From assembly GCA_951406725.2 (NCBI GenBank), contig OX597826.1:65782001-65846000 (forward strand): a stretch of DNA of 64,000 nucleotides, read 5' to 3'. Below the pieces are notes generated by a model that ran no database searches, was not told where the DNA came from, and was given only the letters and a program-made list of their open reading frames with translations. This stretch comes from Octopus vulgaris (Eukaryota). Positions 1,357 to 62,046 of the stretch are shown piece by piece. A program made the position numbers and the translations under genes. The number at the start of each line of letters is the position of its first letter. The first letter of the stretch is position 1.

Positions 1357-1627
1357 TTGTGATACATCCAAATCTATTTTTCCATCCTGAAGTATTTGTT
1401 TAAAGTGACTTATGTTTCTGTATGTGTTGTACAAGTATGATATATCGTTTAAGTTCCTTTACGGGAAAAAACCCCTCTTATATTATACCGGCTACAGCCT
1501 GATGATGCCAACTGGCAATAGCAGTGTTTTGGGGTTGCACCGAGCTGTGCCGATGCAGGATGGGAAAAATAAATTTGGATGTATCACCGAAGGATATGCA
1601 TTATAATATCTATAAATTCTATCCAAG

Positions 1628-2160
1628 GATTATTATTATTATTATTATTATTATTATTATTATTATTATTATTATTATTATTATTATTATTATTATTATT
1701 ATTATTATTATTATTATTATTATTATTATTATTATTATTATCATTACTATATTTATCCTACATTATATCAGCACAGCTCGTTTGTTACCTTTGGTCGTAA
1801 TGTTGGCAGTAGCGGTGGTGGTGCTAATGGTGCTAATTATAGTTTCGGTGGTAGTGGTGGTGATAATAGTGGTGTTACGGGTGCAATGTTGTTGATGGTA
1901 ACAGTGGTGGTGGTTGTAATAGTAGTAGTTGTAATGATAGTGGTGGTAGTGCTGGTAATGGTGGCAGTGGGGCTAGTAGTGGCAGTGGTAGTGGTAGTAT
2001 TAGTGATTAGGGTTAGAAGTAATGGTGGTCGTGGTATAGTGATGGTAGTTATGACGGTGGTGCGCTAGAGCTTGTGGTACTAGTAATAGTGGTGGTGGTG
2101 GTGGTGGCGGCGGCGGCGGTGGTGGTGGTGTTGGTGGTGGTGGTGGTGGTGGTGGTGATA
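1628..2160. repeat. (ATT)n followed by degenerate (GGT/GTA)n low-complexity tract
   Basis: Read directly from the sequence. Confidence 0.95.
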
Positions 2161-3715
2161 GAGCATGTTGAGGGTGGAAATACAACCAACTTCTTAAATC
2201 GTGCTGTACTAGTATCATAAGGGATATGTTGGAAGATCTAGTCCTAGATACACAAAGACTGAAAAAAACAAAAAAAAAAAAACAGAAAGAAAAACTAGAA
2301 ATGAAAACGATGGGATGGTCGCAGCTGGAATATCTTTGATATTAGGTTTACTGTATCATGTTCTGATTTGAATACAGCAACAGCTACAACGACAGCAACA
2401 GCAGTAGCCACAGCAACTACAACAAAAGTTCTACATTGTGTACATGACGTTAAAAAAATATGTCTATGTCTAAATTAGAGAAAACGTCACTTGAGCATAG
2501 CAGGGCTTGGCTAGGATCTATGGATGATTGAAAAATCATAACTGCCCACACTCCGATGACATGTTTCTTTTGTTTACATTCGTTTTACCCCGCTCCTCTT
2601 TCTCCTTTCCATCCAATCAATCTTCGTCGCTACAATAATTATGTTGACAAACAAAACACGAAAGTAAATTGTAATATTTTTTCTATTTACCTAATTTCAT
2701 GGTAATAATCATTTATTTGTTGATTTGTATATCGTACATGCGCTCACATACATACGCACGCATAAACGCGAAAACGCACACATACATTCAAACACATAGA
2801 CATGCAAAATATCGATTCATATTTCAGTTATATCGATTCATATTTCAGAATAACTTTAAGATGGACATAATCAGTATTGTGGCGATCATTCCCTTACCAA
2901 AGTTGAGTAAAATGCAATCAAAATTACACTGCAGACCCCCTTCATTCTAAGTACCATACAATGTCTTACCATAGCTACACTTTATAATATAATATAACAA
3001 TATATATTTAGTTGTATAATGCATAATATATCATACATTACAGTACAGAAAGTCACACACTTCGGCATCACAAAAAGATTTTTACGTCACTGTACAGCAT
3101 TACAGTATTCTACATGTTATGCTATGAAGCAATTTATTTACATATACCACACTGTGTGTATATGCATAGAATAAACAACTGTCACTATAAAATATATTAC
3201 ACATTACAGTACAGTAAATTACACATTATGGTCTGCTACAATTTTATGTAAAACATTGTATATTATGTTGTACATCAACAGTATTACTTTACATCGCAGT
3301 AAAGTAAACTACACATAAACATATCGCACTATATATTACATTATATATTACCGTACAGTTAACTACACATTATCGTAGGATAAAATTATACACATCATAC
3401 TACATAATATACTATATATTAAAATACACATTATATAATGGAACAATATATACCACAGGGTTGAGCTGTAGCTAAACAATAACCACATATAACATTAAAC
3501 CATACGTTAAACTACGCTTTACATCCCACTACAAAGCAAACAACCGCCAATATTCCACAAGATTATATCGAACCCCTCAACGAGTCACACAATCACCATA
3601 CTAAACTACACTCTTCACCGCTCTAAAAGACCCTGGGCTACACTTTATGTTTCGTTACAAGATACTTCATCACAACAGTCAAAATAAATTACACTATTAA
3701 GAGACGGAGTGCTTG

Positions 3716-3990
3716 CTAACTAGTTTCCGTTAGGGCTGGTAATAAACAATTTCTCTTGCTATTCCCGGAGTTTTCTCTGAAACTAGGGTTTTTGTTGCAC
3801 TTGTCGCCATCTCGACTAGTCTTCACTATTTTCTTTTCATCATGATTCGGCAACCAGAATTTTTGTCCTGTGTCATCAATATCATGCTCAGCTGAACACT
3901 GTTTCAATATGGTTTTGTAGCCTTTGAAATAAGTTTTGATGCACCACTGATCATATATTACCTCTCTTTAGCCGCCTTGCTTTATCCACT
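3716..3990 (-). pseudogene. Decayed LTR-retrotransposon (BEL/Pao-like) integrase zinc-binding remnant
   Basis: ORF 3716-3907 (EHDIDDTGQKFWLPN...IVK...KC) resembles the H...RQKFWIP...VK...C..C pattern; highly degenerate. Confidence 0.35.
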
Positions 3991-4735
3991 CACATATATT
4001 ACGATATATAAATGTGACGACTAACCGAGGATCTACAATATAAGAGATGTCTCTTATAACTACGCTTATATTTATTTGCCCCAGGCACAGGGGTGGAGCT
4101 TTGTCTAACAATTTTAGCCGATGTTTTGGTTGGCTCTTCAGTTTTAAGTGTAGCAGATTGAATCATAAAGTTTTCCGTTCCTGTTGAGAGGATTTCTCTT
4201 GATATATCTTGAAGTATTTGTTATACTTCTTGTCGCGGAGGTACAGTCAGTCCAAATCACAAATGTACAATTTTTTCTTTGCCTTCTCTTAAATTAGATC
4301 CTGTAGTATAGAGACACTGCCGCAAAGCATCTTACCCGGCGTACTAACAGTTCTGCCAGCTCGCCGGCTTAAGTATTTTTATATATTGATGATTTAAACG
4401 TTCAGATTTTCTTTTCGTTTATTCATTAAATTGTGCTTTCTTTTTCTACGTTTGTTGGGTAGTTTACCGCATTTGTGCTTGGTTGCCATGTTGAATGGGA
4501 AAATGTCATGCTTGTAAATATGTAGGAAAACATCTGCAAAAACAAATTTTATTTGTTTGTTTTATCCTCAGGTATCTAGGGCAGGCTTTCCTCTAGTAAT
4601 TATAATTCTCCAAAGAAAACTTCATTTAGTAATGCTATAAATAGAGTATAGTTTCAGAGTGAAATAAAGATACATATAAACGCAGCAAGAACCAATAATA
4701 ATAATAATAAAAATGATGATAATAATAATAGTAAC

Positions 4736-59490: not shown

Positions 59491-61005
59491 ATTAGTACAT
59501 GATTTCTACTATAAATTCAAAAATTTTGACATGGGCACATAGCTTCCGTAAATTCGTAGAAGAACATATAATCGAAGTATCACCTTTAGTATATAGTTCA
59601 TATTTTTATCGTCTCCAGAAAGGTAAAAGTTTACCTGAGCAGGATTTGAACTCAGATCGTTAAAAAAGGTAACAAAATAGATTACGTATTTTCTGCCACT
59701 TACCAATTCCGATATCTAGCATTCTTATAGTAGTTGTCAGTTTTGGATTGGCTGATTGGCTGAAATTTTAATAAAGAAATCAATTTTTATGTTTTAATTT
59801 CTCCTAAAAAGTTGTTACAATTTTCAAAATTAGAACTAAATACCACACGTGTAGAAATTCTCGAAATATTTGGATCTAGTAGGTGAACCCAAAAATATTC
59901 TTATTTTAAATATGGGCATAAGTCTATTACACATGATGTAGTCTGAGAATAAAAGATTATTAAGACATCAGTATTTAATTGGTACCACTTGCACTGCGCA
60001 GGTATAGCTCTCGGGGTCATTGAAACACACAAGTTACCATACTGCGACAAGTACCGGAACTGAAGAGTGATGCCTCTTAATCAACGTCCAAAATGTTGTA
60101 AACACGATTTAAAATTTTGTAGACATAATTACTTAACAGCTTTGTACTACAAGCTTTTATTATATAATATACCATAAACTAATATATCAAACTGAAACGT
60201 TATACAAATAACCAGTTATACTATAAACTGCATCATCACAAAAACAGCAATAACCACGTTACCATGACTAAGGCTAAGAAACCATCAAACCTGAAATGCA
60301 ACCACGCCACCACTACCGCCACCACCATCACCAGAACAACCGCTACGCTACCAATACCACTGGCACAGCTTCACCGCCATCACTACACTGACACTACAAC
60401 TGCAGCTACCGATTCTGTCGACAAACAATTAATGATCTGTACATGCTCAACACTATAAACATTGTAAACTCTGTTACAACACACAAACGCACATTCACAC
60501 ACTATATGTGTGTGTGTGCGTGCGTGTGTATGTATGTATATAATATATATATATGTGGACACGCACGTACACACACACACACACACATACACACACACAC
60601 ACACATATATATATATACATATATACAAACACACTTTCTCTCACGCTCATACACACCCATACACGCACGCACACACACACACACACACACTAATACACAC
60701 ACACACGCAAGTTCAAAGCAATACACATACATATAATTCGGTTAGTGAATCCAGAGCATTGGCAACTAATAATGGTTTCCCTGCGTGGGAGTGATGCTGT
60801 TCATCAGATCAGCTGGAATAAACTTCGAAAACATTCATATCTTAATCTGAATGAAGAAGCAATTTATATAAAACATCCACCGGTGATCGTTAAAGAACTA
60901 ATTACTAATAATTACTAACTATATCTCCAACATGTCTTCAGATATGCACATGCTCTATGAGGTTGCATAATACAATAATTGTGCATTGAGAGGATCTGGT
61001 TTTAG

Positions 61006-61226
61006 CGATAATCCCTCGACTATTGCGGGTGTTACGTTCAAAAACCCCCTGCAGTAAGTGAAAATCCGCGAAGTAGAAACAGTATTGTACTGCATTTTTA
61101 AAAATTATTTTTATAATTTCTATATATTTATTTTATTATAAATGCAAAACAACATCACGGAGGAATCGACGTAAGCTTAAATAATAAACCGCAATAGGTG
61201 ACCCGTGATATGGCGAGGGATTACTG
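61006..61226. mobile_element. Tigger/pogo-type MITE, inverted relative to 49972-50177
   Basis: taatccctcgac...cgagggattactg-TA. Confidence 0.85.
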
Positions 61227-61400
61227 TATAGAACACTTCCTGGTTTGGCTCCTCGAGTGCTGGAATAAAAAAAAAATTGTGGTACAATCCGCCATATAGT
61301 ACAAACACGGTTAAAAGTATAGCTAGATATACACTTCCCTAAATTCATAGATATGACAAAAAAGCTTTAATAAGGGTTCTGTGTAAGTTACAGCTAAATA

Positions 61401-62046
61401 ACATTCTGTGTCCGATTAGTATTTGCGAGGGGAGGTCATCGCTCATATCTCTAGCCTTACGTGATACACACGGACTCGAATTTCAGGGTGGTTACCCGTC
61501 CTCAGCGTGTGTTAATCACCAGGTAGTGACAGAAGCTCATTCTACTCACAAATTATTATATATATTTTCTAGTGACTCACTGTCGCCGATCTCGTAGAAG
61601 AGAGAGAATGTTATATTAAATCTCTGAGCGAGATATAAACAGAAGCAGTACGGAACCGTAATATATATTTGCCAACTAAGTGTAGCGTCATATACAGGAC
61701 AGTGCTACTGATGTTTATAGCCCCAGGAAGACATCTCCTCCAGCTGGCTAACGATACACATTCTGTGTCCGATTAGTAACCACCCAGAAACTCGAGTCCG
61801 TGTGCATCACGTAAGACTAGAGATGGGAGCGATGACCTGCCCCCGCAAATACTAATCGGATACAGAATGTCTGTCGTTAGCCAGCTGGAGAAGATGTCTT
61901 CCTGGGGCTATAAACATCAGTAGCATTGTCCTGTATAGTTCCGTACTGCTACTGTTTATATCTCACTCAGAGATTTAATATAACATTTTCTCTCTTCTAG
62001 GAGATCAGCGACAGTGAGTCGCTAGAAAAATATATAGCAATTTGAG
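61401..62046 (-). mobile_element. Penelope-like pLTR / retrozyme-like unit: 357-bp monomer with terminal redundancy plus inverted copy
   Basis: acattctgtgtccgattagt occurs at 61401 and 61758. 61776-62046 is an inverted copy of the unit. Contains a hammerhead. Confidence 0.82.
61461..61519 (-). ncRNA. Type I minimal hammerhead ribozyme
   Basis: Minus strand: gtgat(ta)acacacg-CTGAGGA-cggg taacca ccct-GAAATTCGAGTC-cgtgtgtatcac. The sister half-copy at 61776-61810 reads ccca-GAAACTCGAGTC. Confidence 0.82.

Follow-up and report, generated by a model that had tools for sequence, protein, structure and literature searches.

Hammerhead ribozyme remnants in a 64-kb stretch of the Octopus vulgaris genome: probable traces of many Penelope-like element families

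Hammerhead ribozyme motifs are scattered through a 64,000-nucleotide stretch of the Octopus vulgaris genome (assembly GCA_951406725.2, contig OX597826.1, positions 65,782,001 to 65,846,000 of the forward strand), which is called the window below and is numbered from its first letter. In the present study, we found that the excess of hammerheads in this window is real, and that about seven to ten scattered remnants really do lie in its 64 kb. The motifs are genuine type I hammerheads, most of them decayed, and they likely represent pieces of the end repeats (pLTRs) of many families of Penelope-like elements (PLEs) and of short non-coding derivatives of these elements. A first-pass annotation of the window had listed 11 sites, and its coordinates agree with the sequence. 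Six of these sites pass in our scans, the one at 33903 is marginal, the one at 18090 is unsupported and the one at 15770 is a half motif only, while the two partial ones at 1491 and 61776 are incomplete copies that are backed by their surroundings. Two further sites had been missed, at 18426 (+) and 46955 (-), and the latter scores at chance level.

The window has 36.8% G+C and 18% simple repeats. With a strict descriptor (intact core and at least five pairs in stem I, three in stem II and two in stem III; 200 shuffles), two complete type I hammerheads were obtained, at 16504 (+) and 61505 (-), against 0.03 per shuffled window, and none of the 200 shuffles reached two. When the demand on stem II was dropped, 57513 (-) was added, and the three sites compare with 0.11 per shuffle. 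A decay-tolerant log-odds scan (scan 1), with 1,914 local dinucleotide shuffles as the control, gave seven sites at 20 bits or more: 16504 (+), 61505 (-), 57513 (-), 55252 (+), 18426 (+), 20567 (+) and 39012 (-). The expected number was 0.22, whereas a similar hit rate in shuffled sequence had been named in the first-pass annotation as the result that would speak against it. In scan 2, which allowed bulges and a stem II of up to 120 nt (1,229 shuffles), eight sites scored at least 20 bits against 0.64 expected and seven scored at least 22 bits against 0.21 expected; the reversed window yielded one site and none at these two levels. In addition, exact 3' halves bearing a palindrome numbered 16 in the window against 5.8 +/- 3.2 in 25 shuffles. 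The scores were set once the sites were already known and the shuffles do not preserve repeats, so that single E-values are rough.

In what follows, the sites are named by their core starts, with the first-pass position in brackets where it differs, and E gives the expected number per window in scan 1 and scan 2. The best-preserved type I hammerhead, 16504 (16498), occupies 16498..16559 (+) with an intact core (E 0.00/0.000); it has a 6-bp stem I, an extra U after A9 followed by the G-C pair that closes stem II, and a palindromic stem III of 6 nt, and its cut is predicted after 16553. The type I site 61505 (61461), at 61466..61512 (-), has an intact core and a 7-bp stem I (E 0.00/0.000), with a predicted cut after 61473 and a stem III palindrome that differs by one change from most copies of its family. 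At 57513 (57431), spanning 57431..57519 (-), the core is intact, stem I has 6 bp and the palindrome 8 nt (E 0.00/0.009), while the base of stem II is decayed and unpaired; the hammerhead lies in an island of about 226 nt and starts 12 nt from a (TA)n tract. The fourth intact core (CUGANGA, GAAA, UH) belongs to 55252 (55246), at 55246..55290 (+), where stem II is weak, the first pair of stem I is mismatched and the palindrome is imperfect (E 0.00/0.011).

One core change each was found at four decayed sites. These are 20567 (20557), at 20561..20646 (+), with a 6-bp stem I and a long stem II (E 0.01/0.002); the new site 18426, at 18421..18523 (+), with a 5-bp stem I (E 0.01/0.033); 39012 (38973), at 38975..39015 (-), the weakest of the seven, with a 10-nt palindrome region, weak stems and only three pairs in stem I (E 0.03/0.10); and 34014 (33903), at 33905..34019 (-), a probable, marginal relic outside the range of scan 1 (scan 2 E 0.24), in which G12 is changed, the stem II region is long and the 8-nt palindrome is perfect. 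Downstream of the 33903 site, at a distance of 390 nt, a further possible relic was noted at 33457-33517 (-), with E 0.35/0.96. Site 1499 (1491), at 1489-1552 (+), is a relic that keeps the 5' core and both strands of stem I and has lost the 3' core. The new site 46955, at 46873-46960 (-), is a possible relic with a damaged 5' core; its score is not above chance (E 3.2/6.7), and its sole backing is a flanking direct repeat. At 15770..15837 (+) only a 3' half stands, behind a microsatellite, and the sequence downstream of it recurs at 40934-40967; this second copy (40927-40967) begins behind a (TA)n tract, no more than about 2 nt from where the cut would fall. The motif at 18090..18121 (-) was not among the best 40 matches of scan 1 or the best 22 of scan 2.

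All three stems are kept at two of the 11 first-pass sites, and the other nine are damaged, partial or unsupported. As had been claimed, the flanks mostly differ: BLAST of 14 neighbourhoods revealed no common flanks except in the pair 61461/61776, which is one insertion and not two independent sites. The earlier interpretation of this variety as conserved structure is not favoured, since unrelated flanks, with two intact sites in 11, point to a large number of element families in decay and not to conservation of structure at the individual loci. The placement of the motifs in islands between microsatellites also proved uninformative, as 10 sites had a median distance of 166 nt to a masked simple repeat, and 2,000 random unmasked positions a median of 104.5 nt. 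Repeats within the window were compared by masked self-BLAST in place of the repeat finder, which gave simple repeats only.

The palindromic stem III is a further feature of these motifs. None of the eight stem III segments forms a hairpin alone, and seven of the eight form self-duplexes at -5.8 to -11.1 kcal/mol. The same design has been described for PLE hammerheads, in which a palindromic stem III leaves the monomer unstable and allows pairing as a dimer (Cervera and De la Pena, PMC4209133). Such hammerheads, described since 2014, occur in thousands per genome, with extreme variety within a genome, mostly as solitary copies and also as opposite-strand pairs 100-700 bp apart (PMC4209133). 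The motifs of the window resemble them in the type I layout, the core, the palindromic 15.2-16.2 region and the lack of an obvious loop 1, and also in their many unrelated families, in the prevalence of solitary copies and in the occurrence of opposite-strand pairs separated by a few hundred bases. They differ in that their stem III palindromes are mostly of 8 nt against a minimum of 4, and in that no PLE frame is linked to them.

The structure of the insertions carries the assignment to PLEs. An inverted, head-to-head arm was found at four of 11 independent insertions (14 neighbourhoods), namely at 16504, 61505/61776, 55252 and 1499, and terminal direct repeats at three sites, 16504 (period about 510), 61505 (357 plus 21 nt) and 46955 (527). 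Around 16504, a PLE-type non-coding insertion of 931 bp (15930..16860, +) lies between (TA)n tracts. Its inverted arm, 15930-16114, stands head-to-head with the direct part and starts 8 nt past the predicted cut, and the start of the direct part (16117-16296) is repeated at its end (16625-16860), which gives a period of about 510 nt and about 1.45 units; the fold of this unit has a z of -1.64. The old insertion around 55246 (54860..55530, +) has an arm of about 240 nt at 54860-55100, an inverted copy of the stretch downstream of the 55252 hammerhead with 77% mean column identity. Around 1499 there is a palindromic mini-insertion (1354..1594, +) with arms at 1354-1389 and 1556-1594 that are 90% alike, the 39-nt arm being a copy of the stretch downstream of the motif. 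The unit around the 46955 relic (46637..47207, -) has a direct repeat at its ends, with a spacing of 527 nt. The four arms start at +8, +13, about +15 and -24 relative to the cut site, and none at +1; three of the four fall within a 20-nt window, which has a post hoc P of about 6e-4 and looks non-random, with n=4 only.

PLE insertions are known to carry pLTRs, an inverted 5' arm, a tail of 30-40 bp and a target-site duplication (Arkhipova et al. 2013, PMC3846280; Craig et al. 2021, PMC8557442). In vitro, the protein of an Anolis PLE can nick both strands of AT-rich DNA and extend them, with reverse transcription initiated within the RNA; the hammerhead of this element needs the protein for cleavage and is dispensable for insertion (Frangieh et al. 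2024, PMC11167929). The insertions of the window share with these the head-to-head arm, the partial tandem, AT-rich or (TA)n targets and strong 5' truncation, and differ from them in being non-coding and short. In the mechanism that we propose, a PLE reverse transcriptase/GIY-YIG protein would nick both strands of AT-rich DNA, and reverse transcription would start inside the pLTR RNA. Synthesis would usually stop early and leave an insertion of a few hundred bases that includes the hammerhead, and a second, inverted cDNA would often be joined to it head-to-head. Pairing of two copies through the palindromic stem III may occur in the parent elements, with cutting as a dimer or with help from protein, and many families would bring many different palindromes. 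The solitary copies at the loci studied here are likely inactive and decaying neutrally, and most of them show clear damage.

The PLE content of the genome agrees with this reading. In O. vulgaris, PLEs cover 191.5 Mb, or 6.83%, in 190 families, with a reported burst at a Jukes-Cantor distance of 0.2 (PMC13282606). A share of 6.83% gives about 4.4 kb per 64 kb, which would about account for the observed density; the six delimited insertions total about 3.3 kb in the window. The 190 families would likewise account for the diversity of the hammerheads, and arms that are 70-90% alike appear in line with the reported burst.

Several observations weigh against the PLE origin. At the gathering score, the window gave no match to any of 4,227 Rfam families. 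By BLAST of the neighbourhoods, neither an inverted arm nor a terminal repeat was found at 57513, 18426, 39012 and 34014, and there is no such structure at 20567, where a 42-nt direct repeat nearby is wholly upstream. No GIY-YIG or PLE-type Pfam match was obtained in 193 open frames of the window, and none of the 33 read-through frames (stops as X) upstream of the sites had a Pfam match. A single family was sampled outside the window, and in six of nine independent full motifs the base before GAAA is A rather than C (binomial P 0.033). When Rfam matches were ranked by E-value, no hammerhead stood among the best 150 of 424, in which microsatellite-like miRNA models dominate. The only Pfam match above the curated cut-off was RVT_1 at 6652-7038, far from any hammerhead. 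The first-pass proposal of Penelope-derived or retrozyme-like families fits the inverted arms, the terminal repeats and the permuted 357-nt unit described below, while the link of the motifs to a PLE reverse transcriptase/GIY-YIG frame was not found in the 193 open and 33 read-through frames. A missing PLE frame is expected for truncated copies, and we infer the link to an autonomous PLE from the insertion structure.

The extra A before GAAA departs from the published consensus, which has an unpaired base after A9 and the pair G10.1-C11.1 directly before GAAA (PMC4209133). This arrangement fits at 16504, and 39012 has the C before the core with weak pairing. A single core entry among the 56 in Fig. 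S3 of that paper reads AGAAA, that of Cotesia if the rows are followed in order (the PDF text does not preserve the columns), and a U-A closing pair occurs in S. mansoni family 3. In the 357-nt family, A before GAAA makes up 45-98% of depth, whereas U stands opposite to it in no more than 8-55%, so the extra A is often not Watson-Crick paired. In metagenome contigs, the extra-A pattern was found at not fewer than 120 loci of about 1,800 estimated, and both stems had at least five pairs in three of the 120. Type I hammerheads that are well formed and carry the extra A were noted at 2494-2552 (+) of locus L020, intergenic in a phage-like metagenome contig, and on the (-) strand of locus L083, in AT-rich non-coding DNA; neither of these two real-looking loci is from octopus or lies beside a PLE frame. 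Family patterns had no match in viral contigs and none in metagenome contigs. A minimal-hammerhead pattern, meant to lead to a PLE protein, gave at least 120 loci of about 440 in viral contigs; only 20 of these fitted a stricter re-scan, none had both stems strong, and the frames at one viral contig locus, L165, are phage-like.

The site at 61505 belongs to a high-copy family. A 357-nt non-coding unit with a 21-nt terminal repeat lies at 61401..61778 (-), and an inverted, circularly permuted second copy at 61776..62051 (+) starts inside stem II and crosses the unit junction, so that 61776 (+) is the 3' half of a hammerhead in a copy standing head-to-head with the 61461 unit. For sampling of the family, contigs of four runs were aligned to 60900-61790 at 80% likeness; runs under five organism labels share part of 60720-62300. 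Summed contig depth in run X2 was 57,084 at the 61505 hammerhead against 71 in unique flank, about 800x, which is not a copy number. The letter at 61480 that makes the palindrome perfect has 91-96% of depth in all four runs. Consensuses lacking an intact core and stems, which the first-pass annotation had given as evidence that would count against it, were not seen in the one family sampled, in which most copies keep a perfect palindrome. Two letters in or beside loop II vary within the family, and none of the 40 differences listed (50 more exist) falls in the core. Depth is 87,008 immediately 3' of the motif and drops about 45-fold, to 1,913, some 60-90 nt away on its 5' side, and at 61703 most related contigs pass from the unit into other sequence; the whole 357-nt unit is therefore a minority form of a larger family. 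The main continuation past 61703 shares a 12-letter word with the 16504 element (16700-16712), in the opposite orientation relative to the hammerhead. No Pfam match was found in the frames of the 357-nt unit.

Beside this family, at 61009-61230, there is an element of about 220 bp with terminal inverted repeats in a TA context, likely a Tc1/mariner-type miniature inverted-repeat transposable element (MITE) to judge from these features. Parts of it recur at 49968-50174, and its summed contig depth is about 10,000x flank in run X2. The hammerhead-to-MITE depth ratio was 0.072 in a run only guessed as RNA and 0.085 in DNA, and nothing firm follows from it.

The 357-nt unit is also the main ground for another explanation, that most sites are monomers of true non-LTR (long terminal repeat) retrozymes, in which the hammerhead would cleave the transcripts of tandem arrays of a non-coding unit, and the products would become circles and return to the genome through rolling reverse transcription. 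Hammerhead motifs number more than 6,000 in a coral, where they fall into 16 families, and about 5,000 in a mussel (Cervera and De la Pena 2020, PMC7229834). A bioRxiv study derives animal retrozymes from PLE pLTRs and reports cleavage in one of nine dimers (Li, Clavereau and Pollet 2026, bioRxiv 10.64898/2026.07.22.740005), and animal non-LTR retrozymes have been proposed to be non-autonomous PLE derivatives. This explanation differs from the favoured one solely in units that spread on their own as circles. The 357-nt non-coding unit has the size of its class (about 150-450 bp; 350-390 bp in mussel, PMC7229834), one type I hammerhead and dispersed monomers; more than one unit length and a permuted form are present in the window, and head-to-tail joints going back 357 nt were found in all four runs (11, 1, 7 and 6 contigs). 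The 16504 insertion, with its 1.45 units, points the same way. Unlike such retrozymes, the unit was not seen as a tandem of two intact copies: two units in a row that each carry a complete hammerhead, which the bioRxiv study demands, occur at no locus of the window, and the contig pieces listed are too short to show a dimer. Monomer folding is modest and not clearly above shuffles (z -1.42, with 5 of 100 shuffles as stable, for one decayed copy folded as linear), the whole unit is a minority form, and its ends lie 50-71 nt from the cut site. We regard this explanation as possible but rather doubtful for most sites, and prefer decayed pLTR pieces.

A bolder reading joins four claims. The octopus would have the densest animal hammerhead load recorded, about 10^5 well-formed and 3-4 x 10^5 recognisable motifs provided that the window is typical; these would form over a hundred families, mostly with the extra-A core variant missed by standard descriptors; some families, such as the 357-nt unit, would make circular RNAs; and the inverted arms, all four starting within 25 nt of the cut site, would record cutting or blocking of the template by the ribozyme in vivo. 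If each 64 kb held two motifs of good form, a genome of 2.8 Gb would contain about 9 x 10^4 of them (Poisson range 1 x 10^4 to 3 x 10^5), and 7-9 relics per window would correspond to 3-4 x 10^5, figures that may be high because the window was chosen for density and the scan is looser than published ones. The axolotl has 126,247 hammerhead motifs, or 4.5 per Mb (PMC7229834). That all four parts are true together seems unlikely to us.

It is less probable still that the hammerheads sit on short elements moved by a long interspersed nuclear element (LINE) of the RTE or R4/Dong type, like the schistosome hammerhead repeats that resemble short interspersed nuclear elements (SINEs), and not by PLEs. 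The O. vulgaris genome is very rich in RTE and Dong-R4 elements (PMC13282606), reverse transcriptase and R4-like C-terminal fragments occur in the window, and no PLE frame was found in the frames searched. Against this, no sequence is common to the hammerhead neighbourhoods and the SINE or LINE fragments of the window, and the pattern of PLEs is the one seen here, in which arms standing head-to-head overlap in content and have permuted ends. We consider it highly improbable that the loci are host-selected ribozymes kept by the octopus for RNA processing: two sites keep all three stems, but the damage at nine of the 11 first-pass sites resembles the decay of old transposon copies, and the 61505 copy departs from its own family in stem III. 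Chance matching in AT-rich, repeat-rich DNA, which applies to single weak sites (18090, perhaps 15770, 38973 and 33903) and for which observed and expected numbers at 14-16 bits differ only two- to four-fold, is refuted for the top six sites by both scored scans (seven against 0.22 at 20 bits in scan 1; seven against 0.21 at 22 bits in scan 2, with none in the reversed window) and as a general explanation is close to negligible.

With its hammerheads most plausibly derived from PLEs, the octopus joins the animals whose PLE load leaves many hammerhead relics, and the observations do not indicate a new kind of system. There is no cephalopod among the 56 rows of Fig. S3 of PMC4209133, the repeat annotation in the accessible part of PMC13282606 has no mention of hammerhead or ribozyme, and no catalogue of cephalopod hammerheads was found in the literature searched, which left most subscription papers outside its coverage. 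Such a catalogue could help to sort short unclassified repeats into PLE derivatives and would supply many natural variants with which to study the role of PLE hammerheads.

Other elements were also observed in the window, in which ARAGORN found no tRNA genes. The RVT_1 match at 6652-7038 and a C-terminal piece at 7484-7936 (+) with 249 homologues are pieces of a broken non-LTR retrotransposon, R4/Dong-like by its motifs. Two open frames lie in a GC-richer patch at 42533-43554 (-); the only homologue of the upstream frame, 42925-43554, one of 132 candidates, is the Octopus sinensis protein LOC115225585 (65% identity), and the two frames are possibly open reading frame 1 (ORF1) of a LINE. Two palindromes, a near-perfect one of 160 bp centred on (AT)n with a 92-bp duplication (49546-49805) and a decayed one of 240 bp (54601-54842), were noted, and in neither was a hammerhead seen. 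At 24441-24960 there are 2.7 tandem copies of a 190-bp unit from the most frequent SINE-like family of the window. Finally, a 546-bp repeat stands in direct tandem (89%) at 29531-30076 and 30344-30889 with (ATA)n between, and a split third copy lies at 4741-5012 and 5488-5745.

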